Both the position numbers and the translations under genes were made by a program. A DNA stretch of 64,000 bases from a virus: positions 11,208-75,207 of the IMG/VR virus record IMGVR_UViG_3300029875_000005; one strand, given 5' to 3'. This document shows, piece by piece, positions 5,285 through 60,123 of this stretch. The notes under the pieces are model-generated. The model worked only from the letters and a program-made list of their open reading frames with translations, did no database searches and was not told where the DNA came from. Numbering within the stretch: the first letter of the stretch is position 1; every line of letters begins with the position of its first letter.

Positions 5285-5698
5285 ATGGAAAGAAAATACA
5301 GACAATCTTTGAACGCCTACGATTATCAGCCGGAAGAAATGAGGGCTTACCTTCGCTACAATGGCTGGCACTTCAATAAGAAGATGTGTGAGTGGGCAGT
5401 AAAGCAGATGCGGAAGAACGGTAAGCCAATCCGCATGATGAGCAAGGATGATATTGAGGACATTCTGAAGAAGAATAATATCGTGCTGGAGAATAATGTG
5501 GGCTACGATGCGGTTTACATCGCACACATGTGCTTAGCTGATTTCTACGGTTCGTCTATCACGGAAGAGAAGCAGATGGCTCAGTTCATCAAGGACTACG
5601 TGGATGATGAGGATCAGCAGGATGGATTCATCTTTAATAGGTTCTATGCAGATACATCATTTAATGGTGTGGGGATTCCTTGGGAAGAGATTTTGTAA
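5285..5698 (+). CDS. Hypothetical protein
   Basis: 137 aa, in operon order, with no recognisable motif. Confidence 0.6.
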   Translation: MERKYRQSLNAYDYQPEEMRAYLRYNGWHFNKKMCEWAVKQMRKNGKPIRMMSKDDIEDILKKNNIVLENNVGYDAVYIAHMCLADFYGSSITEEKQMAQFIKDYVDDEDQQDGFIFNRFYADTSFNGVGIPWEEIL

Positions 5699-7330: not shown

Positions 7331-10300
7331 TTAATAAATATTTGCCCTATACAAAAGTTTCTGCTGCTTTAATTTCCATGTAATTTTAGCATTCGTGTAC
7401 AGATGGTTGTCTTCTGACACTGTTGTTGCTTCCGTTGTGAAGTCTGCAAATATGATTGTTCCCATAATAGCATAATCTATGCAGAACATACCTTCATCCA
7501 TCATCCATGCACTACTCATAACATTTGAATAATAAGATGGAACGACATACACCTTGTACTCTACAATCTTCCTTTTACTCCAATCAATGCTTAGTTGCAC
7601 GATTCTTGAGCAAGTAGCTGCATTATCTGTTGCGCCAGTAGGATTTGAAGTAGGATTGTTTCGAGGGTTCTCTTTCATTAAGAAGTTGTTATCGAACAGT
7701 GTATATGTAGGATAACTCACACCACTAATCTCTTTCATTCCCCAATACTTCACATCATGACACAAGAACCACTGAGCCAATGAGTCTGTCTTGATTCTCC
7801 TTGCAACAGCACCATAATTACTAGACGATGGCAAGCCACCAACTTGTTCCAGTACTGGACCAAATGTAACCTTGTCTTCACCGCTAACAGTTCTTTTGAT
7901 AATTACCCAAGAGCAACAGTTTCTTGGATTTACAATTATTCTGTCTTCAGTCCTATCAAAACCAATAGTATTTGTATGGGTTTCTGCTATAGGTGCAGTA
8001 GAATGCACATCTGCATCAAACAGAATATCTCTTAAAACATCTTGGTCATTGAGGGTGTATGAACCAATCTTCTTGCCATTCTTCCACTCTACCAAAGTAT
8101 CAGAATAAGTCATGTGTCCATCTATTGTTAGTACGTTGCTATGATAATACACGATGTAATGGAAATCATCTATGTAGATGAAGTCATGAGTATCATAATT
8201 TGGACTTGCTAATTGGTCGATTAGGATGAAGTTCTCATCAAACACGCAAAGGCCTTTGAATGGGTCAACCTTTAGCAATGCAACAATTCTTGACTTACCA
8301 CTGCTGTTTACCTGATGCTCGACATTGTAGAAATAAGCAGAGCTGTCAGCGATGGAAAGAAACTTTGTCAATCCAGTTTCCTTGACCTCATACAGATATT
8401 TCTCGTTATGCAGCAATACCCGATTGGCATTTCCGCAAAAAACAGCAGCACCTCCAGAAGGGTTGGATATAGTGAACTTTAAATCTGATGGTACATCGAA
8501 AGGTGCCACAAGGTCTTTGTCTATCTCCTTTACAGACAATACCCCTTCATTACTTACAGAAAGCTCAAAGAAAGTACCATTTGGAGATTTTAGATATTTG
8601 GTTTCCTTCGTGAAATTGGCAACATTCAATTTAAGTTTTGGAATAGAAACAGAATCACTAGATTCACTTACAGCATACTTACCTCGGTTTATGGTAACAT
8701 TATTTTCGTAAGTAGCCACGGCAAAACGTATGTATGCAGCCCAATCCCAATATTCTGGAACTTGAACACTTGCCTTAGGCAGACTTCCGTTTGGCATCAA
8801 TCTTTTTGCGTTATTGTCATTTCTGTCTGAAACAACAACCATACCTGTAGCTGTGCCAGTCCTAGTGAACCATTCTCCTGGCTTACAAGGTATTTTGTTA
8901 CTCATTTCTGCACCTGCATTTGGAGGAGTGAAAGATTGCTTTCCATCAGCCGTTGTGTATGTCTTTTGTGATGTAAGATACAAATTAGGCTTAGAGTTGT
9001 CGTAAACCCCATCGATGTTTTTAAGCTGAATGCCATTAACATCGTCTTGTGTTGCATAATTGGAAAAATCAATAGATTCGCCTTTCATACTAAAATGTTC
9101 TACATCTAGATGTTCTACATCTAGAGCAGTTTCATGTTTTACGCCATTCTTGTCTCTGTAGCTAAGAATATGTTCTTCTTCGTCCAATGTCATCTCTAGC
9201 CTATTCTCTATGTCTGTTTTTTCTTCTATTTGTGTCAGGATAGTTTCTGACTTTACCTTGTAGAGATAATGGCTACCATCAGGAGCAGTATATCCAATCA
9301 CCTTACCCTCGGCATCAGTCTCAACAGAAAGATATTCATCATTCTCTATTGTAGAAAGATGAGCTGTACGTTTTTTGATGTCTGCTATATCAATAATAGC
9401 ATTGGCAATAAAGGTACTAATATCAATACCACCAACAACCATGTGACCATCATCAGCACGGAAACCACCTAATACTTTGTTTTCTGCATCAATGATAGCA
9501 TAGAGCCATTCCTCGTTGGCTATTACAGAGTACATTTCATGATTAGGAAAGTATGGCTCTCCATCATATTTGATTCCTGCAAGTATTCTGTTTTCTGCAT
9601 CTTCTATTGCAATGATATACTCATCATTAGAAATATAGAAGAAGCTGTCAGCTACATCAATGTTTATCAACCCCTTACCATCTTCCTTTGGCTGGAAAGT
9701 TTTAAGAGTTTCGTCAATGTTTGAAAGAACATTCTTGATAGCCTTAATATCATCAAGCCACTGAGCCTTGGCTGCCCAGCTAGTACCATCTTGCTGAATA
9801 CCAAGAAGAGGATGATTAGCTGCATCAAGAATTACCCAAAGGAACTCTTCATTCTGAATGACGTGATACATTTCATTGAGAGGATAATATGGCTTGCCAG
9901 TTGCTCTGTAGAAACCAAAGAGTACTCTATCCTCTGAATCAACTACAGCCTTAATAAACTCTTCATTCTCAATTACCCTAAAGCGCTCTTTTACTTCATC
10001 CTCAATAAGGGACTTGCCTTCCTCTTTGTCTACCTTCTTTTTATCAATGGCCGCAACCTTCTCGTCAATGGTTGCCTTGTATGCTTCCATAGCTTCGGTT
10101 AGGGTTTGCTGGAAGGTCTCGTTGTTGGCGATGATTTCATTGAGAGTTTTCTGAATAGGCTTAGGAATACCGACTGCCCAGTCTATACTACCATCTACAC
10201 GGATGCCCCAAAGGAACTTGTTTTCTGCATCTGTGTAGACACGCAACCACTCCTCATTGGTCTCGTAGTGGCCGAGATTGTTGACGAGTTCGTCGATGGC

Positions 10301-14737: not shown

Positions 14738-14779
14738 CAAAAATGCAAATAATTTGAAGAAGTTTTGCCGTGCTCCAAC
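14738..14779 (-). promoter_or_regulatory. Late-type promoter (minus copy): GTTGGAGCACGGCAAA-N18-CATTTTTG
   Basis: The reverse complement of 14764-14779 is GTTGGAGCACGGCAAA. Exactly 18 nt further along the minus strand is a near-consensus -7 box. It drives the scaffold/MCP operon. Confidence 0.6.
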
Positions 14780-14796
14780 CTTGCGCTTGGTGGTTG

Positions 14797-14838
14797 GTTG
14801 GAACACGGCAAAGAAAGCCATGTTTTTGCCTATTTTTG
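14797..14838 (+). promoter_or_regulatory. Late-type promoter: GTTGGAACACGGCAAA-N18-TATTTTTG
   Basis: Same 16-mer and same 18-nt spacer as the copies at 26233 and 56218. The portal ATG is 16 nt after the -7 box. Confidence 0.65.
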
Positions 14839-18849: not shown

Positions 18850-19263
18850 ATGGAAGATTTTGAAATGTATGGATTTAAGTCTGTAAGGGAGATACAGAAA
18901 GAGAAGAAGGAGAAGGTAAAGAAAATTCTCCCTGCAAGAAAGAGTGCCCAAAAGGAATATATACGTGACTGGCTGGCAAGGAGCCAAGAGCAGTTTGAGG
19001 ATTGTATGAACCAACTGGCAGAGTATGATCCTAAGACATACGTCACCATCTACAAAGACCTTACCAAGCACATGATACCAAAGCAAACAGAAGTAAGCGT
19101 TACTCACGGTATAGATGCAGACTTCAAGCAGCTTATGGCACTCGGTATGACAACCGTAGAGGACGAAGACGAGGCAGACGTACTGGATATAAGCAAAGCA
19201 CCCGAGATACAGGATGCAGATTTTGAGGAACTAAACGATTTGACGGATGGCTCTAGTAACTGA
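18850..19263 (+). CDS. Possible small terminase subunit
   Basis: 137 aa, immediately upstream of TerL and overlapping it. The call rests on position only. Confidence 0.35.
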   Translation: MEDFEMYGFKSVREIQKEKKEKVKKILPARKSAQKEYIRDWLARSQEQFEDCMNQLAEYDPKTYVTIYKDLTKHMIPKQTEVSVTHGIDADFKQLMALGMTTVEDEDEADVLDISKAPEIQDADFEELNDLTDGSSN

Positions 19264-21364
19264 ACAGGAAATAGATAATCTCGTAGCGGAAAATCAGGAG
19301 CGATACGATGAGATTTATGGCACCTACGACCCTATGACAGGCGAAGGGTGCTATAACTTTGAGCATCGTGTGAAGATAGAACTATCCGATTTCTTCATTC
19401 CTAAGATGTGGGTTCCGAAGAAGACCGCCAAATCTGTTCTGTTTAGAGGTCTGAGAAAGATGGGCAGCCTGAAAGACTACATCAACTACGTGCTGCACCA
19501 GAAGGATGATGCCCAGCATTTCCAAATGCTTACCTTTGCCATCTGTAGAGTGAGGTTCATGGAAGACCCCGAGTTTGCCCTATACGTGACCGATAAAATT
19601 GAGGATAAGAAGACCGGTAAGATGATTCCTTTCAAGCTGAATTATCCTCAAAGAAAACTACTGAAGATTATGGAGGACCTGCGGAATGCCCACAAACCAG
19701 TGTTCGTGGTTATTCTGAAGGCACGTCAGTGGGGCGGCTCTACCCTATCACAGCTTTACATCAAATGGATTCAAGACTACAGGCGCGATGGTTGGAATGC
19801 TATTGTGCTTGCCCAGCAGAAGAATACCGCCAAGAAGATTAAGGCGATGTACCGAAAAGCTTTGGAGCGGCAGCCGGGGTGGACCGTGGGGCATCCGGGC
19901 GCAAAACTCCAGTTCTCTCCATACGAAAATTCTCCCGACGATTTTCAGGTAACGGATGGTGTGAAGGCTATCAGACGAAGTACGCTGACGGTAGCATCCT
20001 TCGAGAACTTCGATTCGGTGCGTGGTAGCAACTTCCACTGTGCTCACTATTCGGAGGTGGCCTATTGGAAGAAGACGCCAGAGCATGATCCTGAGGGTGT
20101 GATTTCTTCTATATCCGGTGGTATTGACCCATTGGAAGACAACGTGGAGATATTCGAGAGTACCGGTAGAGGTAATTCCGGTTTCTTCTATGACAAGTGC
20201 CAGTTGGCAATGGACCCAAAGAATAATGATGCTTATTCGTTCCTCTTTATTCCTTGTTTCTTCATCGAAAAGGATATGACTCCTGTAGAGAACAGAAGAG
20301 CATTTGCCAAGTGGCTTTTGCAGAACAGAGACCGAAGTACCTGTCCGAAGGGCTATCGTGAGACTGGCAAGTTCTTCTGGCGAATGTGGCAGAAGGGTGC
20401 TTGCTTTGAGGCAATAGAATGGTACAGAAACTACAGAAACAAGTTTACCACCCATGCGGCATGTGCTACCGAGGCTCCTATTGATGAGGAAGATGCGTTC
20501 AGAAACTCTGGTAGACTGGTATTCAATCCTTATTCTATAGACGACATGCAGGCTTTGTATAAGCAAGATCCTAAGTTTACTGCCGACATCGTGGTGAACA
20601 TCAGCGTGAAGGATGATAACACCATTCCGAACTCGAAGGTGAAGCTGAGAGACGATGGCGAGGGAGACTTGAAGATTTGGGCTGTGCCAAACTGTCTGCA
20701 AGTGGAGAACAGATATTTGGTGAGCGTGGATATTGGCGGTAAGAGTACGACATCGGACTATACCGTTATGACCGTGATAGACCGATTCGGTATGATTCCT
20801 ACGGTGAAGGGCAAGCCAAAGGTGGTAGCGAGATACAGAGGACATGTTAGACATGATAAGCTGGCATGGATGGCTGCTGCCCTAGCTCATTATTATGATG
20901 ATGCGCTTCTGGTGATAGAGAGTAATACTGCCGACCGAGAGAAGAACAACAACACGGAGGGTGATCACTTCCTGACTATTCTGCAGGAGATTGCCGACTA
21001 CTACGATAATCTGTATCAGAGAACGAGCAGTTCGGAGAATGTGGAAGACAATGTACTGGCGAAATATGGTTTCCAAACCAACAAGCTGACGAAGCAGCAG
21101 GTGATTGATAACTTGGAAGAGTTTATTGATGATAATCTGTATGAGGAGCCAGACAAGGAAATGTATCATGAGTTGCGCATCTATGAGCGACATGATGATG
21201 GCAGCTTGGGTAACATCGTGGGTAACGGAAACCATGATGATGTGGTAATGAGTACCGGCATCGGTCTCTTTGTGAGTCTTACGGACATGGAGAAGCCTAG
21301 CTGGAAGAAAGCGGAAAGAAGAAGCCGCGGTGGCGATGGTGTTCATACGGCGGCGAAAATTTAA
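19247..21364 (+). CDS. terL: Terminase large subunit
   Basis: Walker-A-like VILKARQWGGSTLSQ. The C-terminal RNase-H-like nuclease pattern includes VSVDIGGKSTTSDYTVMTVIDR and LLVIESNTADRE. Confidence 0.85.
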   Translation: MALVTEQEIDNLVAENQERYDEIYGTYDPMTGEGCYNFEHRVKIELSDFFIPKMWVPKKTAKSVLFRGLRKMGSLKDYINYVLHQKDDAQHFQMLTFAICRVRFMEDPEFALYVTDKIEDKKTGKMIPFKLNYPQRKLLKIMEDLRNAHKPVFVVILKARQWGGSTLSQLYIKWIQDYRRDGWNAIVLAQQKNTAKKIKAMYRKALERQPGWTVGHPGAKLQFSPYENSPDDFQVTDGVKAIRRSTLTVASFENFDSVRGSNFHCAHYSEVAYWKKTPEHDPEGVISSISGGIDPLEDNVEIFESTGRGNSGFFYDKCQLAMDPKNNDAYSFLFIPCFFIEKDMTPVENRRAFAKWLLQNRDRSTCPKGYRETGKFFWRMWQKGACFEAIEWYRNYRNKFTTHAACATEAPIDEEDAFRNSGRLVFNPYSIDDMQALYKQDPKFTADIVVNISVKDDNTIPNSKVKLRDDGEGDLKIWAVPNCLQVENRYLVSVDIGGKSTTSDYTVMTVIDRFGMIPTVKGKPKVVARYRGHVRHDKLAWMAAALAHYYDDALLVIESNTADREKNNNTEGDHFLTILQEIADYYDNLYQRTSSSENVEDNVLAKYGFQTNKLTKQQVIDNLEEFIDDNLYEEPDKEMYHELRIYERHDDGSLGNIVGNGNHDDVVMSTGIGLFVSLTDMEKPSWKKAERRSRGGDGVHTAAKI

Positions 21365-24272: not shown

Positions 24273-24755
24273 TTATCTGTTTTTGATATTATTTATGCAA
24301 TATGCTACGATGTAGCCTAATACGAAGCAGTAAAGATGGAGAAGTCCGTTGACATTCGGCACGGCCATGGTGCAAATAATGAACGGCATCGCTTTCTTTA
24401 ATGCCTCTTTCCATCGTCCTGTCCTACCCCACATCAAACCGAATGAAGCAAATAGGAAACCGGAAAGCCCCATTGTAGGCTGACTAACATACATGGGCAG
24501 CAGACTAGCGACAGAGGCAACAGCCAGAGAAGTGACTGGTTTCATATCGTTCTTTATCTGCCAAAGCACCAGAAGGTTTACGGCAAGATGAAAGCCGTTG
24601 ACATGGAAGAAGCTATACAGGATATGATTCTGCCAAGGGCAACCGGGATAGAAACCTATGTGCCAAGTACACAGAACGAGGCAGATGATGCTAAGCACCA
24701 GCTTTGTTCGAAAGTTTCTTCTTACGAAGGTCCATTTCTCTGTAATTTTTTCCAT
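24273..24755 (-). CDS. Rhomboid-family intramembrane serine protease (minimal 6-TM form)
   Basis: Start taken at MEKITEKW. The protein carries HVNGFHLAVN (HxxxxHxxxN as in GlpG TM2), MGLSGFLFASFG (GxSG catalytic Ser) and LLHLYCFVLGY (TM6 His). Six hydrophobic segments fit in 160 aa. Confidence 0.7.
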   Translation of the reverse strand: MEKITEKWTFVRRNFRTKLVLSIICLVLCTWHIGFYPGCPWQNHILYSFFHVNGFHLAVNLLVLWQIKNDMKPVTSLAVASVASLLPMYVSQPTMGLSGFLFASFGLMWGRTGRWKEALKKAMPFIICTMAVPNVNGLLHLYCFVLGYIVAYCINNIKNR

Positions 24756-25146
24756 ACTTCTTATAGTAAGCGAAAATAAACTTGAGATTACTTGGCTGGA
24801 TAAAGAACTCTGGTGCAGGCTCAGAAACAAGGAACTGGCAGATAAACCATAAAGATTTGCCCACGAACTCCTTTCGCTGCGTCATTTCGTTCATCCTATT
24901 GAACAGCGTATAGTACAACTTCTGCCGAATCGGCTTCATGCTATCCACCTTTGAGAAATCGCCGACTGCCATTCTGCGGAGTATATCCCAAGCTCTTTTG
25001 GGAGAAACATAGTATCTCGGAGCAGGAGAATGAACCACCTTTTCCCAAGCCTCCTGTTGGGAATGGCAATTAGGAGCTATCTCCCGATACGCCTTCATCA
25101 GATCATCCCTCTGTCTGTCAATCAATTCGTAATTTGCTCTTGCCAT
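24691..25146 (-). CDS. Hypothetical protein (first gene of the rhomboid operon)
   Basis: 151 aa. Its end overlaps the rhomboid start by 65 nt, and a -7 box lies upstream. Confidence 0.6.
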   Translation of the reverse strand: MARANYELIDRQRDDLMKAYREIAPNCHSQQEAWEKVVHSPAPRYYVSPKRAWDILRRMAVGDFSKVDSMKPIRQKLYYTLFNRMNEMTQRKEFVGKSLWFICQFLVSEPAPEFFIQPSNLKFIFAYYKKYGKNYREMDLRKKKLSNKAGA

Positions 25147-25169: not shown

Positions 25170-25177
25170 CAAATATA
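25170..25177 (-). promoter_or_regulatory. Host-type -7 box TATATTTG
   Basis: The reverse complement of caaatata lies 24 nt upstream of the ATG at 25146. Confidence 0.5.
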
Positions 25178-25269
25178 CATATTATTTAGAATATGACCAA
25201 ATAAGAGCATAAAGATTTAAATAAGTTTAATATTAGACTGGTTTTCATGGTGTTACGAAAGAAAAAGTT

Positions 25270-25277: not shown

Positions 25278-25348
25278 CAACGAAATAACATATATATACT
25301 AAGAACTGTTAGTAAAAAGTGAAATTAAACCATAAATTCGTAACAAAA

Positions 25349-25519
25349 ATGAGAACAAAACAGGAATCGCCTCTCTCGGAAGAGGAGGAAGCCTTAGTTA
25401 TGGAAGGCTTATTGAGTAGGAAGATTTGGAGGTTCTATGAACTTCTATCAAAGTGGGCACCCATCCCATTGATGCTAGGTCACTGGTACGCCGTATGGGA
25501 CTATGGACATTATCCCTAG
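25349..25519 (+). CDS. Hypothetical small protein
   Basis: ATG start MRTKQESPL (the listed start at 25319 is GTG). Confidence 0.4.
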   Translation: MRTKQESPLSEEEEALVMEGLLSRKIWRFYELLSKWAPIPLMLGHWYAVWDYGHYP

Positions 25520-25835
25520 ACCAACAATATTAGATACCGATTTCAACGGGAACTGCATCATCTGGATTTATGTACTGGCATACATTTATATGCCACTGAC
25601 CATGATACCGGTAAGTTTCTTCTTCAGATACTGCTGGATTTTCCGTATTCCGTTCTTCTATTTTTTCGGTATCAACGCAATCAGATTGTATCATCAGCAC
25701 TGGCTCATCACTCCCGAGCAGTTGGAGATGCACCATGTGTTTATCATATTCACTTTAATGCTTTACGCTTATGGATTTATCAAAATCGCTCTATCGAATA
25801 GCAGAATCTGCCTTCGGGATGCTAAGAAACGATGA
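25503..25835 (+). CDS. Multi-pass membrane protein
   Basis: 110 aa with 3 strongly hydrophobic aromatic-rich segments. Confidence 0.5.
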   Translation: MDIIPRPTILDTDFNGNCIIWIYVLAYIYMPLTMIPVSFFFRYCWIFRIPFFYFFGINAIRLYHQHWLITPEQLEMHHVFIIFTLMLYAYGFIKIALSNSRICLRDAKKR

Positions 25836-26232
25836 GTGCGGGTTTACAGAGGAAGAAGAGAGGATTGTGCAGAGGAATCTGCTGTACTGGATGGAAAGGA
25901 AGCATCACTTTGACGAACAACTGGGCAGAGCCTGTATCGCCAACATCTATTATTTTGATGATGATGTTCACAAAAAGTATGCGCCTTACTTCGGGTTTGA
26001 TGAGTTGAAGGATGATTATGACCGGCTATCTTGGAACATACCGGACTACAACTTCTGGGATTTTGCGGTAACGATGAATAAGATGTATGCTGACCATATA
26101 GACGTGGTGGGCAAATGGTCGAAGAACAAAGACACCACAAGAAAAAGGATCTCGGAACTGGCTATCAGTTTCCTCTGTGACGAATCGACAAACCACCCGA
26201 CGGATAAAATCTGGTGGTATATGAATAGCTAA
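25771..26232 (+). CDS. Hypothetical protein
   Basis: 153 aa. An alternative start at 25819 (MLRNDE) is possible. Confidence 0.55.
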   Translation: MDLSKSLYRIAESAFGMLRNDECGFTEEEERIVQRNLLYWMERKHHFDEQLGRACIANIYYFDDDVHKKYAPYFGFDELKDDYDRLSWNIPDYNFWDFAVTMNKMYADHIDVVGKWSKNKDTTRKRISELAISFLCDESTNHPTDKIWWYMNS

Positions 26233-26274
26233 GTTGGAACACGGCAAAAGCTATTGAAAAGCCTTTTATCTTTG
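26233..26274 (+). promoter_or_regulatory. Late-type promoter: GTTGGAACACGGCAAA-N18-TATCTTTG
   Basis: Identical 16-mer and identical spacing to 14797 and 56218. The holin ATG is 27 nt downstream. Confidence 0.65.
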
Positions 26275-26300: not shown

Positions 26301-26744
26301 ATGGCAGAGATAGTACATACATTTTTACAAGAGCACCTGTACAGATCGGCATTGGTTATTGTCATCTGCATGGGTGCTCTTATCATTTCTATGGGCGTGG
26401 ACCTGTTCTTCGGCATCAATAAAGCGAAAGAGAACGGACTGGCTACGACAAGTACAGGATTCAAGAAGACTTGCGACAAGGCGAGGAAATACTTCTCTCC
26501 CTTCATGGTGACGGTCTGTATAGACCTGATAGCATGCACGGTTCTCCCCTTCCCTGTCTTCTCTATGATTTGGGCAGGATATTGCGTGTTCTGTGAATTT
26601 GTAAGCGTAAGAGAGAAGAGCTGGCAGAAGGCTGAGATACGGAAGCAGGAGAAGACAGTAAGCATTCTTCTGGAGAACAAAGAAGACTTGGCTAGGGCTT
26701 TTGCTGAGATTATGAAGGAGCAGGGAAAGGAGGAGAAGAAATGA
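26301..26744 (+). CDS. Holin (Phage_holin_4_1-like)
   Basis: TM segments plus the pattern VDLFFGINKAKENG..TSTGFKKT and EFVSVREK, with a charged C-terminal tail. It is directly upstream of the amidase with an ATGA overlap. Confidence 0.75.
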   Translation: MAEIVHTFLQEHLYRSALVIVICMGALIISMGVDLFFGINKAKENGLATTSTGFKKTCDKARKYFSPFMVTVCIDLIACTVLPFPVFSMIWAGYCVFCEFVSVREKSWQKAEIRKQEKTVSILLENKEDLARAFAEIMKEQGKEEKK

Positions 26745-27184
26745 GACTGATCAAGAGAATTTTTGTTCATTGTACTGCCTCTTCTCAGAAATGGGGCGTA
26801 AAGGAACTTTGGGACGAGTTTAAGCGCAAAGGTTGGAATAACCCAGGGTATCATTACGTGATTACTGCTGATGGTGGGATTCACCAGATGCTGCCGGTAG
26901 AAATGGTTAGCAACGGTGTGAAGGGATATAATGCTACGGCTATCAATGTGGCTTACGTTGGCGGCATCAACAAGAAGGGAAAGGCGGTAGACAACAGAAC
27001 TGAGGAGCAGAAGAAATCGCTTATCACTCTGCTCACTCAGCTGAAGAAGAAATATCCGTATGCTGAAATCTTAGGGCACAGGGATATTTCGCCCGACAAG
27101 AACCATAATGGCGTAGTGGATCCTTGGGAGAGAATCAAGGAGTGCCCTTGCTTTGAAGCTAAAGTTGAATACAAAGAGATATAG
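26741..27184 (+). CDS. N-acetylmuramoyl-L-alanine amidase (Amidase_2 / T7-lysozyme-like endolysin)
   Basis: IFVHCTAS, GYHYVI..DG, YNATAINVAYVGG, ILGHRD and ECPCF are the canonical zinc-amidase pattern. Confidence 0.9.
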   Translation: MRLIKRIFVHCTASSQKWGVKELWDEFKRKGWNNPGYHYVITADGGIHQMLPVEMVSNGVKGYNATAINVAYVGGINKKGKAVDNRTEEQKKSLITLLTQLKKKYPYAEILGHRDISPDKNHNGVVDPWERIKECPCFEAKVEYKEI

Positions 27185-27187
27185 CTT

Positions 27188-27628
27188 ATGAAATGGTATG
27201 ACATAAGGTTTTGGAAATGGGCTTGCATCGGCTTGATGATTGGAATTATCCTATTGTCATTTACAGGATGCAAGACGAAGGAGTATATCAAGGTTCCTTC
27301 TGTTAGAACTGAATACGTATGCAGAACTGATACTTTTGCTAAGTTGGATAGTATCTACATGAAGGATTCGGTATATGTTTTTCAGAAAGGTGATACGGTT
27401 TTCCATAACAAGGTGGTTTATCGGGACCGGTATCATAATATATATAAGGTGAAGACGGACACGATCATCAAGAGGGATTCTGTTGGCGTGCCTTATCCTA
27501 TAGAGCGACAACTGACGAAGAACGAACAAAGGCTGATGTCGCTAGGCAGATGTTATATCGCCTTTCTGTTCATACTGGCGGTTTGCGCGATTGGGTTTAC
27601 TCTCTGGTACAGAAACAAAAAATGCTAG
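27188..27628 (+). CDS. Unimolecular spanin candidate (N-terminal lipoprotein signal plus C-terminal TMD)
   Basis: Lipobox LLSFTGC follows a basic and hydrophobic leader. The C-terminal TM is CYIAFLFILAVCAIGFTLWY-RNKKC. It is the third gene of the lysis cassette. Confidence 0.55.
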   Translation: MKWYDIRFWKWACIGLMIGIILLSFTGCKTKEYIKVPSVRTEYVCRTDTFAKLDSIYMKDSVYVFQKGDTVFHNKVVYRDRYHNIYKVKTDTIIKRDSVGVPYPIERQLTKNEQRLMSLGRCYIAFLFILAVCAIGFTLWYRNKKC

Positions 27629-27631
27629 CTT

Positions 27632-27943
27632 ATGGCTAAGATTAGCGAAGAACTGCAGATGATTGATTCGCTCCTGATGGAATTTCATGAGCGGATTCAG
27701 AGCGGAAGATGTCTGACGAGCAAGCAGCAAAATGCTTTCATGCTTGATTTTCTGCACCGCATTGCCAATAAGGACGAGCCTATCAGCAAGGCAGAGGCAT
27801 GCAGCTATGTTCGTGTTTCCAGGGCTACCTTTGACCGCCTTGTGAAAGAAGGCAGGCTGCCAAAGGGTAAAAAGCGGAAAGGATGGACCGAGCTGGTTTG
27901 GTACGAAAAAGATTTAGATAAATATGTAGATAGATTGGTATAG
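27632..27943 (+). CDS. HTH DNA-binding protein (excisionase/MerR-like HTH_17 type)
   Basis: C-terminal ISKAEACSYVRVSRATFDRLVKEGRLPKG...WYEKDL. Confidence 0.55.
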   Translation: MAKISEELQMIDSLLMEFHERIQSGRCLTSKQQNAFMLDFLHRIANKDEPISKAEACSYVRVSRATFDRLVKEGRLPKGKKRKGWTELVWYEKDLDKYVDRLV

Positions 27944-34737: not shown

Positions 34738-35169
34738 TTATACCCAACCGGCACCCGAGTTCTCGAGTTCTCGCTTGCAATATTGCAAACCAACTTGATC
34801 GTCGGGTTCCGGAATCATGATACTGCGGACATTTGCGTAATCTATCACGTTTCGGATAACGCTGCTAGCCTCTGCTGTATTGAGGGAAGTGAGAGGCTTG
34901 TATTTGCGGTTGCCTGTCTTGTCTACCTCATCGGTATAGAAGATGTAGCTGCAAACGTTGCGCTGAATATCACGAAGCGTTTCGTAGAAGGTCTGCCCTA
35001 ACTTTAGGGCGAGATAGCTAATCATGAAGTGAAGATAACAAGACTGCTTATCGGTCTGAATGGGGTGGAACTTCTTTAATTCGATATTATACCCACACTC
35101 TTTGGCTTTTTGAACTTCCTTCACGATTCTCAGATAGTCGCGAGGATCATTAGGATTGTATACACTCAT
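34738..35169 (-). CDS. NinB/Orf-like recombination mediator (tentative)
   Basis: 143 aa. TDKQSCYLHFMISYLALKLG and TSLNTAEASSVIRNVIDYA...IPEPDD resemble the lambda Orf layout. A nin-like context (NinG, RecT) supports the call. Confidence 0.4.
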   Translation of the reverse strand: MSVYNPNDPRDYLRIVKEVQKAKECGYNIELKKFHPIQTDKQSCYLHFMISYLALKLGQTFYETLRDIQRNVCSYIFYTDEVDKTGNRKYKPLTSLNTAEASSVIRNVIDYANVRSIMIPEPDDQVGLQYCKRELENSGAGWV

Positions 35170-35179
35170 ATTATTATAA

Positions 35180-35767
35180 TTACATTAGATTGATTACTAA
35201 ACCCTTGCAAGCATAGTCGGTTGGTACACCGAGGACCTGCTGGAATTTGTTTACGGCAACATCGGGGTTAAGATGGCGTGCTGAACCATGAATGAGGACG
35301 ATGCGCTTGGCGGTATTGGCTGCCTTGCATTCGTTGAGATACTCGATAGAGTGAGCCAGACTCATGTGGGAAAGACGGATGCGGTCGGCTTGGCTGACTA
35401 TCGTCTTGCCTTCGTTTACGGCTTTCTCTAGGAGAGAATCATCATAGTTGCATTCTGCCAAGAAGTACCGGCACCCTTGAACTACATTTTCCATATTGTA
35501 GCAATCGGTGAAGAACATCATGGTTCCCATTTCCGGATGATGAATGAGGAAAGAGAAGCAAGGAACATCGTGTTCTACCTTCATCGGGGTGATACTGAAA
35601 GCACCTAGATGATAGGTCTGTTCTTTAATCATGCCTTTTACTCCCTTGCATTTCTCGGATAGCTCTTCGGTAGAGTAAGCATCGATTCCTGCTTTCAGAA
35701 AGTCTTTGGCATTTTTTGCATGATCGCCTTTCAGCCGTGGGAGTGACTTATAATCACTCCCACGCAT
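35180..35767 (-). CDS. MBL-fold hydrolase (YycJ/WalJ-like), C-terminal 181 aa of a split gene
   Basis: From ...GDHAKNAKDFLKAGIDAY onward it carries MBL motifs VEHD, FFTDCY, AECNYDDSLL, RIRLSHMSLAH and LIHGS. The listed Met and first 14 aa are probably not native. Confidence 0.7.
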   Translation of the reverse strand: MRGSDYKSLPRLKGDHAKNAKDFLKAGIDAYSTEELSEKCKGVKGMIKEQTYHLGAFSITPMKVEHDVPCFSFLIHHPEMGTMMFFTDCYNMENVVQGCRYFLAECNYDDSLLEKAVNEGKTIVSQADRIRLSHMSLAHSIEYLNECKAANTAKRIVLIHGSARHLNPDVAVNKFQQVLGVPTDYACKGLVINLM

Positions 35768-47854: not shown

Positions 47855-48080
47855 TATTAGAAAAGCTAAAAAGCAAATGAAGAAGGCTCGTCCCTATTGG
47901 GAAAGTCAAGGTTACAGGTTTAGGCGCAAGGCTAAGATAATCAGGTATTCGTTGAAGTCTTTGCTTGGTGATTATAGCACTAAATGGATATACTACTGCT
48001 TTGTTAATATGGATGGGCGAATACAAAATCACTTTCCTATCCGGATAGAATCAAAGAGATACAGAAAAAGCAGAGCCTAG
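47847..48080 (+). CDS. Small basic protein
   Basis: 77 aa, K/R-rich. Confidence 0.45.
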   Translation: MTSIRKAKKQMKKARPYWESQGYRFRRKAKIIRYSLKSLLGDYSTKWIYYCFVNMDGRIQNHFPIRIESKRYRKSRA

Positions 48081-48493
48081 TGCCCTGCTTTTTCCTTGTC
48101 TTCACGTTCTCGTTTCTCAGCTATAGCCTGTCTGATCCATTCGGCTTTGTTGCGTCCTAGGGATTCGAAAAACTCAAACGTTTTTTCGTTTACATGCGTC
48201 ACAACCCTGTAGATGAGGGCAGCTGCGCCCTTGCTCGGTGCTCCGGCTCGCTCTCTGCGACCACCCCACCCTGGATGCTGACTGACCTTGCATTGCTGAA
48301 CCTTGCCCTTGCTATTGATGCGGAACTTCATTTTCAGCCGGTCATTTACCCATACTTCAGCAATTACCGCATCGGGCGTCTGCTGAAGGGTAGATTTGGC
48401 AATACCGATAAGATAGGCTTTATCCTTGAAAAAGGTCTCTGTCTCATCGAGTATCGCCCAATCATCGTAGATTATGATTCTTGCCCTTTCCAT
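48077..48493 (-). CDS. Protein with C-terminal ribbon-helix-helix-like segment
   Basis: NKAEWIRQAIAEKRERE resembles a CopG/RHH helix. The call is tentative. Confidence 0.4.
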   Translation of the reverse strand: MERARIIIYDDWAILDETETFFKDKAYLIGIAKSTLQQTPDAVIAEVWVNDRLKMKFRINSKGKVQQCKVSQHPGWGGRRERAGAPSKGAAALIYRVVTHVNEKTFEFFESLGRNKAEWIRQAIAEKREREDKEKAGH

Positions 48494-54676: not shown

Positions 54677-54773
54677 AAGCATATTCTTTACTTTACCAAA
54701 TATTTGGGCAAGAAAATGCTTTTCTTTAACGTTATTTAAGTAAAGAAACCACTTTACTTTAAATAATAATGTG

Positions 54774-54781
54774 TACCTTTG
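54774..54781 (+). promoter_or_regulatory. Host-type -7 box TACCTTTG (rightward promoter)
   Basis: 30 nt upstream of the ATG at 54811. Confidence 0.5.
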
Positions 54782-54810
54782 TACGCAATAACAGAAAGCA
54801 AATAGTTTAT

Positions 54811-55134
54811 ATGGCATTAAGAATAAAAGAAATCATGGAAAGTAAAGGGTTGACCAACACAACCCTTTCAACGAGAATGGGAGTTACCAAACAAGCGGTA
54901 GGACAAATGGTGAAGGCTGAGTCGTTGACAACTGCAACGCTAGACAAGATAGCTGATGCCTTGGGCGTTCCTACATGGCAGTTGATTGCGTCACCTAAAG
55001 AGGTGGCTACAGATATTGAGGAGAGCAAGGGCGGCTTTTCTTCCTTCATCCGCTACAAGGGCATCCACTACACGGCAGACACGCTCGATGAGTTCTTCAA
55101 GCAAGTTGATGAGTTAAGGATTATAGCGAAATGA
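54811..55134 (+). CDS. XRE-family HTH regulator (second repressor-like gene)
   Basis: MALRIKEIMESKGLTNTTLSTRMGVTKQAVGQMVKAES. Start taken after the promoter. Confidence 0.7.
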   Translation: MALRIKEIMESKGLTNTTLSTRMGVTKQAVGQMVKAESLTTATLDKIADALGVPTWQLIASPKEVATDIEESKGGFSSFIRYKGIHYTADTLDEFFKQVDELRIIAK

Positions 55135-55559: not shown

Positions 55560-55651
55560 GATCATAGCGCTAAAATGATACCACCTGTATCACTCAAATG
55601 ATACCGCTTTGTTAGCGTGGTTACAGGTGGTATCATTTGAGTGATATTATC
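55560..55651. mobile_element. 92-bp MITE with 30-bp imperfect terminal inverted repeats and 8-bp target-site duplication
   Basis: The TIRs GATCATAGCGCTAAAATGATACCACCTGTA and GATAATATCACTCAAATGATACCACCTGTA (reverse complement of the right end) match at 26/30. AAGAATCT occurs at 55552-55559 and 55652-55659. An uninterrupted copy of the target site lies at 55984-56020. Confidence 0.7.
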
Positions 55652-55976
55652 AAGAATCTTCATTTATGAAATAAAAACCGCCTAAATCATCTTCTAAAAG
55701 CCTTAATTCTAGATGAGCGCATTATCTTGCACAAAACCATGAAATCTACGAAAAACCCACAAAATAGGCTCTAATCTGCTTGCAAATGGCTCTTAAACGG
55801 CTCAAAACTCACGAATTTGGGAAAAATCCCGACCAACTGCCCGAAAATCGCAAAAATCTTCAGAAATGGGCGAGTTTAGCGTTGATTGTGGGTGAAAACC
55901 ATTCAAGAAGGTTGAATGCGCCTAGTTAAAGTTTGCTAACGAACTCCTTGCGTGCGTGCGTACCTATTAATGCAAA

Positions 55977-56020
55977 CCCCATTTTTGTTTGCAAAGAATC
56001 TTCTTTTATGAAATAAGAAC
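55977..56020. repeat. 44-bp repeat, intact copy (the other copy is split by the MITE)
   Basis: CCCCATTTTTGTTTGCAAAGAATCTTCTTTTATGAAATAAGAAC compared with CCATTTTTTTATTTGCAAAGAATCT|TCATTTATGAAATAAAAAC at 55535-55559 plus 55660-55678. Confidence 0.7.
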
Positions 56021-56217
56021 TTTCTTTACACCATGGCTTTATCGATCCTATGAGACAATTAAGACTAACTTGCTTATAATTAGCCGCTTGTCTTTTCTTT
56101 ACAATAATCACGTATGTTTACAAAATGGGTCTTCTAGAGGGCGAAATGGGAGAAGGAGAAGGGGTAGATTGCGCCCCGAGAAAGAAATTGGTGAGATTTG
56201 GGGCGATTTTGAACGAG

Positions 56218-56259
56218 GTTGGAACACGGCAAAACGGAACTTCAAATATTATATATTTG
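56218..56259 (+). promoter_or_regulatory. Late-type promoter: GTTGGAACACGGCAAA-N18-TATATTTG
   Basis: Third plus-strand copy with identical spacing. The first ATG downstream is at 56287. Confidence 0.65.
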
Positions 56260-60106: not shown

Positions 60107-60123
60107 ACATTAATATATAATAT

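Follow-up and report, generated by a model that had tools for sequence, protein, structure and literature searches.

A probable activator-dependent class of late promoters in gut Segatella phages and a small basic protein that tracks its specificity

The virion, packaging and lysis genes of a gut Segatella phage stand behind four promoters in which a 16-nt box, GTTGGARCACGGCAAA, is found at a fixed distance from a -7 element of the type that is recognised by the host sigma-A. Comparisons of sequences between relatives make it likely, in our view, that these are activator-dependent late promoters, which would be read by the host sigma-A RNA polymerase together with a phage protein, most likely the product of the gene at 24691-25146. 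The analysis bears on a stretch of 64,000 nt of phage DNA, hereafter referred to as the window. To our knowledge, almost nothing is known about the timing of gene expression in phages of the Bacteroidota, the dominant phylum of the gut.

Architecture of the four promoters

The sigma-A promoters of Bacteroidota consist of a -33 TTTG and a -7 TAnnTTTG, and short A/T-rich leaders are typical. The four late promoters (Table 1) have such a -7 box and such leaders, but they are devoid of the -33 TTTG and have the 16-mer in its position. Four copies of GTTGGARCACGGCAAA are present in the 64-kb window, and the same four are retrieved when up to three mismatches are allowed, a threshold at which 0.61 matches are expected by chance; none of 100 dinucleotide shuffles reaches four. 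The -7 element, (T/C)AnnTTTG, comes exactly 18 nt after the 16-mer at all four sites. The pattern scan and the reading of the sequence thus agree with a preliminary description of this DNA, made from its letters, as regards the four copies, their coordinates and their spacers. They also agree on the single base by which one copy of the 16-mer differs, that copy being the one on the minus strand, and on the -7 box, which is TAnnTTTG at three promoters and a variant, CATTTTTG, at late promoter 2. The 18-nt spacers of the four promoters have no sequence in common, and the first ATG is found 26–30 nt past the -7 box (14866, 14707, 26301 and 56287). Late promoters 1 and 2 are back to back, with a gap of 17 nt between their boxes, while the box of late promoter 3 adjoins the stop codon of a DUF7841 gene.

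There are 64 TAnnTTTG boxes in the window. The 16-mer is found at three of them and at the CATTTTTG box, so only four of the -7 boxes of the window carry the element, and the other promoters lack it, as had been claimed. A TTTG at -33 (with a spacer of 17–23 to the -7 box) is seen in none of the four late promoters, where GGCAAA is in that place. The earlier statement that the 16-mer replaces the -33 TTTG is true of the position only, because just one of the 14 operon-proximal -7 boxes of the window has a TTTG; the idea that the -33 element is a general feature of the other promoters of this phage does not stand.

Table 1. Positions in the window of the late promoters, of the operons that follow them, and of the candidate gene with its promoter
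Feature	Position	Strand	Description
Late promoter 1	14797..14838	+	box GTTGGAACACGGCAAA 14797-14812, 18-nt spacer, -7 box TATTTTTG 14831-14838
Late promoter 2	14738..14779	-	box GTTGGAGCACGGCAAA 14779-14764, 18-nt spacer, -7 box CATTTTTG 14745-14738
Late promoter 3	26233..26274	+	box 26233-26248, 18-nt spacer, -7 box TATCTTTG 26267-26274
Late promoter 4	56218..56259	+	box 56218-56233, 18-nt spacer, -7 box TATATTTG 56252-56259
Operon of late promoter 1	14866 (portal ATG) to 24154	+	portal ... TerL ... 921-aa protein
Operon of late promoter 2	14707 to 6344	-	SU10-type adaptor and large fibre-like proteins
Operon of late promoter 3	26301-27943	+	holin-like gene, Amidase_2, spanin-like gene, small HTH_17 protein
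Operon of late promoter 4	56287 to past the window end	+	giant polyvalent-protein gene, start 60121
Candidate specificity factor (putative late activator)	24691..25146	-	151 aa, pI 9.8
Promoter of candidate gene	25170..25201	-	TTTG 25201-25198, N20, TATATTTG 25177-25170

The phage and its late operons

The window comes from the genome, about 75 kb long, of a podovirus-like phage of gut Segatella (Prevotella). A contig of a Segatella copri MAG carries an identical copy of one of the phage proteins and three of the boxes, and more distant relatives are found in MAGs of Ca. Segatella violae, Leyella stercorea and Prevotella. A long region on the minus strand codes for an integrase, RecT, NinG and a dUTPase. 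We take the phage to be temperate. A megablast search of INPHARED with 12 kb of the structural region gave no match, the tRNA scan returned none, and the Rfam search over the whole window returned nothing at the gathering score. Neither the promoter class nor the phage was found in the literature that was searched on phage late promoters of Bacteroidetes and on Prevotella copri prophages.

The four promoters together head every recognisable virion, packaging and lysis gene, and the idea of a phage-specific promoter class placed before operons of these three kinds is borne out at four of the four operon starts, if that of the polyvalent-protein operon is counted with them. The label "late" is used because of this gene content alone. 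The portal is of the P22 type (PF16510/phrog_156), the gene at 19247-21364 gives a weak terminase match, the enzyme of the lysis block is an Amidase_2 and the minus-strand operon includes the SU10 adaptor. Regarding the names given to these genes in the preliminary description, the portal, the Amidase_2 and the giant protein can be kept and TerL corresponds to the weak match, while "scaffold", "MCP", "holin" and "spanin" are guesses made from position only. The longest portal ORF begins at ATG 14854, but relatives conserve only the second ATG, 14866, which is probably the true start because the matches of the relatives begin at residue 5.

In the relatives, the giant polyvalent protein has 5018–5605 aa (5535 aa in one of them) and comprises ddrB-ParB, AAA_34/ResIII, Helicase_C_4 and LPD38 domains. 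Adding 16.6 kb to its start at 60121 and subtracting 2349 gives about 74.4 kb, which is the size of the complete relatives; this suggests that the window wraps around a genome of about 75 kb, with both of its ends in the giant gene. Positions 1-2349 are almost certainly the tail of this gene, whose start is at 60121, and the 10 kb or so that the window lacks almost certainly belong inside it.

Three regions of the genome deserve a separate mention. Just upstream of late promoter 4, a non-coding stretch of about 650 nt (55561-56217) has no match in Rfam; it contains a long inverted repeat at about 55576-55645, AAATGATACCACCTGTA ... TACAGGTGGTATCATTT, and TTTGCAAAGAATCT occurs twice (55546 and 55987), each time after a T-run. 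This stretch may hold an origin or a packaging site, or else small RNA genes. Many of the IMG/VR relatives (L204, L211, L221, L223, L226, L243, L244, L249 and others) end 1.1–1.9 kb past the amidase gene. These contig ends, which correspond to about 28.3–28.7 kb in the window, at the convergent junction after 27943, may mark a terminus of the genome or a point at which assemblies break repeatedly. Last, the product of the gene at 35180-35767 (minus strand), 195 aa long, has the MBL fold and weakly matches Lactamase_B_2, RNase Z and a "cyclic nucleotide-degrading phosphodiesterase", and the homologous position in the relative L329 gives a faint match to Anti-Pycsar_Apyc1; it may be an anti-CBASS/Pycsar enzyme.

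Concerted change of the box in relatives

The exact 16-mer is found in more than 117 IMG/VR stretches, with the same 33-nt back-to-back offset, and the complete relatives of about 75 kb contain exactly four copies each (3300029120_000009 and 2871871566_000003, for example). Relatives were also fetched through their proteins, because finds made by exact match are biased to the motif. In the loci fetched with the portal (n = 80, 82–100% identity), the sequence upstream of the portal gene aligns well, but from one lineage to the next both boxes are altered, and in concert. The pairs of portal and scaffold boxes are, for example, ATTGGAACACCGCAAA/TTTGGAACACCGCAAA, ACGGAAACACGGCAAA/ACGGAAACACGGAAAT, GTTGGAATACGACAAA/ATTGGAATACGGCAAT, TCGTGGTATCGACAAA/TCGTGGTATCGGTAAA and GTTAAATAACCGAAAG/GTTAAATAACAGAATT; ACGGAAACACGG.AA., TTTGGAACACCGCAAA and TCGTGGTATCG..AAA are examples of boxes that vary by lineage and are altered at all the promoters of one phage. 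In class B, the boxes at the four sites are ACGGAAACACGGCAAA, ..GGAAAT, ..GGAAAA and CCGGAAACACGGCAAA, and in class C, G11 is replaced by C at all four sites. Further classes have the boxes GTTCAGACACGGCATA (four copies in one locus), GGTCGGATTCGGGAAT, TCCGAGACGRGGAAGA, CAGAAAACACGG.., GGTTARACACGGA.. and (A/G)TGGAAACACGG... Change together across promoters is also seen in classes D, E and F and in about 8 more.

The same is observed away from the divergent pair. Variants of the lysis promoter (late promoter 3) are present in classes B, C, D, E and F. In the ACGGAAAC lineage, in loci fetched with the amidase, the spacer and the -7 box of this promoter are homologous to those of the window and the box is ACGGAAACACGGAAAA, while later sets of loci revealed the CCG change at the lysis promoter as well. 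Regarding late promoter 4, the loci fetched with a 387-aa protein of its operon have the box CCGGAAACACGGCAAA in the ACGGAAAC lineage and ATTGGAATACCGCAAA in the "CCG" lineage. In the lineage of the window itself, for which the promoter-4 loci were collected by means of a protein instead of the motif, this box is unchanged in 28 of the 32 loci in which it was found; two more differ by one base and four are those of classes B or C, and the first 8 nt of the spacer vary. Between lineages, the spacers and -7 boxes stay homologous while the box changes, and phages whose portals are 82–87% identical can carry quite different boxes.

The spacing was examined by scanning each representative locus with its own 12-mer, at most one mismatch being allowed and no -7 box being required. 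The -7 box (T/C)AnnTTTG is exactly 18 nt downstream of 38 of the 40 class-specific boxes, from at least 15 lineages. A back-to-back pair with a gap of 16–17 nt is kept in 10 of the 11 representative lineages that have such a pair, the gap being 48 nt in L345. All classes have in common a core A(C/T)ACGG, at positions 7–12 of the box, and an A-rich 3' end; the lineage-specific differences are at positions 1–6 and 11–12. A reading of the box as a direct repeat (ACGGAAA-N-ACGGAAA) fits class B only. The scan of relatives that the preliminary description suggested thus finds the architecture kept in place, with four copies in the complete relatives of about 75 kb, while the 16-mer itself differs from one lineage to another.

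The box is invariant within a lineage, it changes together at unlinked sites and its geometry is rigid, which indicates that its reader is probably encoded by the phage. These comparisons support the view that the specificity is set by the phage and not by the host.

A box of this kind could in principle be the -35-like element of a sigma factor of the ECF type, or of another alternative sigma factor encoded by the phage, since it sits where a -35 element would be. The pentamer GGAAC resembles ECF -35 elements, and it is present in the box of the window, as the preliminary description had pointed out. On the contrary, GGAAC is found only in classes A, C and D, and is replaced elsewhere by CGGAAAC, GTTAAAT, TCGTGGT, GTTCAGA or GGTCGGA; there are no conserved bases 16–17 nt past it, and the -7 box of the host sigma-A is kept at 26 nt. 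For the called genes between about 4.8 and 64 kb, the precomputed Pfam records (the only source used for this point) contain no Sigma70_r2/r4 match, and the product of 24691-25146 has no match to a sigma factor by sequence or by fold, though the PDB is rich in sigma factors. Because the sigma-A -7 box is conserved, GGAAC is variable and no sigma domain is on record, we regard the involvement of an alternative sigma factor as quite improbable.

The gene that tracks the motif

Every ORF of the window was first compared between loci sorted by motif class. For the ORFs of 14.8-29.3 kb, pairwise protein distances were then set against pairwise motif distances in a Mantel test. By this measure, no other gene tested in 14.8-29.3 kb follows the motif as closely as the one at 24691-25146. 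The correlation of the latter is r = 0.85 with n = 8 lineages (p = 0.002), 0.61 with n = 10 (p = 0.001) and 0.38 with n = 15 (p = 0.0004; partial correlation on TerL 0.30, p = 0.017), values that are to be read in the light of a sample of 8–15 lineages, of the many ORFs tested and of a control for relatedness that is only partial. Most of the diverse loci were fetched through the 24691-25146 protein itself, and the sample is therefore made of phages that have this protein.

On matched subsets, every other ORF of this region gives a lower value, and the correlation falls off with the distance from 24691-25146: r is 0.71 for the membrane protein, 0.68 for DUF7841, 0.54 for HTH_17 and 0.42 for the holin-like gene, and it ranges from 0.1 to 0.38 for TerL, the portal, the 921-aa protein and the putative TerS. 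When only the portal and scaffold boxes are considered, which are about 10 kb away, 24691-25146 still has r = 0.63 (p = 0.0004), compared to 0.35 for the portal gene, which abuts these boxes. The 24691-25146 protein is 96–100% identical in all 82 class-A loci and 58–59% identical in class B, while the genes beside it fall to 45% identity in class-A loci. Past the region of the Mantel tests, classes A and B also have different versions of the genes at 48077-48493 and 34738-35169; for 48077-48493, the order of identity (66% in class B, 51% in class C) is contrary to the motif distances, and this gene was rejected.

Three regulators had been proposed in the preliminary description. One of them, 24691-25146, is the best tracker of the motif, while the two others are mosaic with respect to motif class and were discarded. 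The HTH_17 protein (27632-27943) is 79–100% identical in class A and 86–88% in class B, with a Mantel r of about 0.5 or lower, and the HTH_3, cro/cI-like protein (54769-55134) is 35–98% identical in class A and up to 93% in class B. The DUF7841 gene (25771-26232) and the gene at 25349-25835 both correlate with the motif (r about 0.7) by linkage. They were set aside mainly because of their biochemistry, the former coding for an acidic protein (pI about 5.1) and the latter for a multi-pass membrane protein, frameshifted in the window. The enzyme encoded at 35180-35767 was not retained as a regulator either, since it has the MBL fold.

Some of these genes call for remarks of their own. In relatives, 25349-25835 is one gene for a multi-pass membrane protein of 155–165 aa. 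In the window, a frameshift near 25510 splits it into the ORFs 25319-25519 and 25503-25835; conceivable explanations are a pseudogene, a programmed shift and an error of sequencing. The DUF7841 gene has a paralogue at 5285-5698; the two divergent proteins are 19% identical, and each of their genes comes last or second to last in a block of plus-strand genes.

The tracking bears on the possibility that a regulator of the host binds the box and that the classes mirror host species. The relatives do reside in several Prevotellaceae (S. copri, Ca. S. violae, Leyella stercorea and Prevotella sp.). However, several classes coexist in the same human-gut datasets, near relatives (with portals 82–87% identical) have quite different boxes, and the motif tracks one small phage gene and not the 921-aa protein, the portal or TerL. 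The 921-aa protein is fibre-like, and its correlation with the motif (r 0.16–0.24) amounts to no tracking; therefore a specificity set by the host is disfavoured. We give very little credence to a host regulator.

Repeats that are specific to a phage, one pair of which is inverted, might also be thought of as sites for packaging, recombination or replication, with no role in transcription. In that case, neither the fixed distance of all copies from a -7 box nor their position near the first ATG of an operon would be expected; the putative TerS (18850-19263) does not track the motif (r about 0.1), and the members of the inverted pair are only 16–17 nt apart. A non-transcriptional role is so improbable that we hardly take it into account.

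The candidate protein

The basic character of the candidate is conserved, with a pI of 9.2–10.1 in all 65 aligned members of its family. This family consists of 119 clusters, all annotated as "hypothetical", and the sole match of the protein is to PHROG 27246, of "unknown function". Searches against Pfam, NCBIfam, PDB sequences, PDB folds and BFVD gave no match: the profile search against PDB sequences returned a designed coiled coil only, and the fold searches of the PDB and BFVD returned nothing with an E value below 1. No recognisable DNA-binding domain was found in the protein, and a reading of its beta-bridge/helix units as RHH-like is unsupported.

The sequence contains an internal duplication, PAPRYYVSPKxA / PAPEFFIxP (PAPRYYVSP / PAPEFFIQP in the window), which hhalign detects with E = 6e-6, and AlphaFold2 predicts with confidence an all-helical fold (pLDDT 91.8). 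The first repeat is nearly invariant in the family. The most variable part is the helix that follows the second repeat, and this helix sorts by the 5' hexamer of the box: it reads ..N(L/M)(K/M)FIF.. in TTGGAA phages, ..SVQYIF.. in TGGAAA phages and ..R(S/T)xEDIF.. in CGGAAA phages. Whether the family represents an unrecognised class of activators, which would have a new, duplicated and all-helical fold, would redirect the sigma-A polymerase at -33 and would comprise at least 15 specificities, is a suggestion that we make tentatively, as somewhat short of an even chance.

The candidate gene is followed on its own strand by a gene for a small membrane protein (24273-24700, minus strand), which overlaps its end. 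The relatives of this membrane protein give faint or weak matches to Rhomboid (PF01694) and are syntenic in many lineages; it corresponds to the "rhomboid operon" of the preliminary description.

The promoter of the candidate gene is devoid of the 16-mer, and it is the only one in the window with the full -33/-7 consensus of Bacteroidota (TTTG-N20-TAnnTTTG). A canonical promoter that looks constitutive, on the activator gene of a temperate phage, would require additional control. The search for operators common to the region of this promoter and to the immunity region gave nothing convincing.

Such a strong canonical promoter would suit a repressor that is maintained in lysogeny, and this leads to a different interpretation, in which the 16-mer is an operator and the 24691-25146 product, or another phage protein, represses late promoters that are intrinsically active by covering the -33 position. 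The site does overlap this position, and most promoters of the phage function without a -33 TTTG, so that the late promoters might be active by themselves. In L345, an extra box of its own type, TGTCGGATTCGGCATA (9966-9981), is found 20 nt upstream of the candidate gene, outside any arrangement with an 18-nt spacer and a -7 box; autoregulation is possible and would fit a repressor. However, steric repression does not need the exact 18-nt spacing that 38 of 40 sites show. Typical operators are dyads, whereas each promoter here has one box, without symmetry, and the candidate gene is in the late/lysis region, outside the immunity region (54.4–55.1 kb). We consider repression rather unlikely.

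Proposed mechanism

We argue that the mechanism that is probably operational is activation. The host sigma-A RNA polymerase would recognise the -7 box TAnnTTTG. This box is assumed to lie at about -12 to -5, an assumption that comes from the Bacteroides consensus; the 16-mer would then be at about -46 to -31, in place of the -33 element. A sequence-specific protein encoded by the phage would bind the 16-mer and contact the polymerase in a fixed geometry, either as an activator of the class II type or, like MotA, as a substitute for sigma region 4 in the recognition of the -33 element. The invariance of the 18-nt spacing favours such a direct contact with the polymerase over simple occlusion. 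In the divergent pair, the boxes are 32–33 bp apart from centre to centre, that is about three helical turns, so the two bound proteins would be on the same face of the DNA.

The most likely activator is the product of 24691-25146, a basic protein of 151 aa made from its own canonical host-type promoter. We propose a division of labour within it: the core A(C/T)ACGG would be recognised by the invariant first repeat, PAPRYYVSPKxA, and the lineage-specific 5' hexamer by the variable helix, at residues ~116–131. The protein would bring about the joint expression of both divergent operons for morphogenesis, of the lysis cassette and of the genes up to the giant polyvalent protein, which is probably delivered with the virion. 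The comparisons establish the motif, the constancy of its spacing, its location ahead of the operons, its co-variation and a statistical association with 24691-25146; binding, activation as opposed to repression, late timing and the assignment of protein segments to bases are what we infer from them.

Comparison with known systems

In phage Mu, the late promoters Plys, PI, PP and Pmom are activated by C, and Pm is activated by Mor. Protein C of Mu thus activates four late promoters (PMC4461284). The likeness to the Segatella phage lies in the number of late promoters, in the retention of a -10-type element of the host sigma next to a non-consensus -35, in a site for the activator (putative here) at or over the -35 region, and in the joint switching of morphogenesis and lysis, which is proposed for the Segatella phage (PMC4461284). 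The differences are that in Mu a dimeric HTH protein binds a dyad, whereas the box of the Segatella phage is asymmetric, that the putative factor is here an internally duplicated single chain with no homology to Mor or C, and that the host uses promoters of the -7/-33 type.

The middle promoters of T4 combine a MotA box with the -10 element of sigma-70, the sigma factor being appropriated by MotA and AsiA. There too a box specific to the phage stands in for the -35 element, and its distance to the -10-type element of the host, which is kept as it is, is rigid. The MotA box, however, has 9 bp and is centred at -30, while the box described here has 16 bp and is further upstream; no homologue of MotA or AsiA was detected in the Pfam records of the called genes or in the searches made with the candidate.

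The late promoters of P2, 186 and P4 use the zinc-finger activators Ogr, B and Delta, and the site of lambda cII straddles the -35 element. These systems also rely on a small phage activator and on a short upstream element common to several promoters, but their elements take the form of a dyad or of a direct repeat (TGT-N12-ACA at about -55; TTGC-N6-TTGC), and their activators belong to known zinc-finger or HTH families that have no homology to 24691-25146.

RinA, ArpU and LtrC are small phage activators of the operon for packaging, morphogenesis and lysis, which come from unrelated families and do the same job (PMC3152322, PMC3753634). The putative factor of the Segatella phage resembles them as a small phage-encoded activator of late operons. 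It differs from them in that they usually act on one promoter, upstream of terS, in hosts with classical -35/-10 promoters, and in that their sequences are unrelated to it. Overall, no homology was found, by sequence or by fold, between 24691-25146 and the Mor/C, Ogr/Delta, MotA and RinA/ArpU families.

In activator-dependent late promoters, several late operons have in common a phage-specific element whose distance to the core element of the host sigma is constant, and this arrangement is found at four of the four operon starts. By analogy, we read the system as being of the same functional kind as Mu C, P2 Ogr, T4 MotA and RinA/ArpU/LtrC, but as a variant in Bacteroidota that is set apart by the promoter grammar of the host, by an asymmetric site of 16 bp and by a putative activator whose fold matches none on record.

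Implications

The analysis yields a promoter grammar that can be tested (16-mer, N18, TAnnTTTG) and a complete map of the late transcription units for a widespread lineage of Segatella copri phages, with a named candidate protein. The natural co-variation acts as a series of mutants, in which specificity positions (1–6 and 11–12), a common core A(C/T)ACGG and a variable helix can be told apart. Genetic tools are scarce in Bacteroides and Prevotella. If the proposed mechanism is true, the many specificity classes would be usable as orthogonal expression switches in these genera, and the at least 15 protein/box specificities would be ready-made orthogonal pairs of activators and promoters for the Bacteroidota. 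The motif could also help in annotating late operons and in classifying related prophages from metagenomic data.
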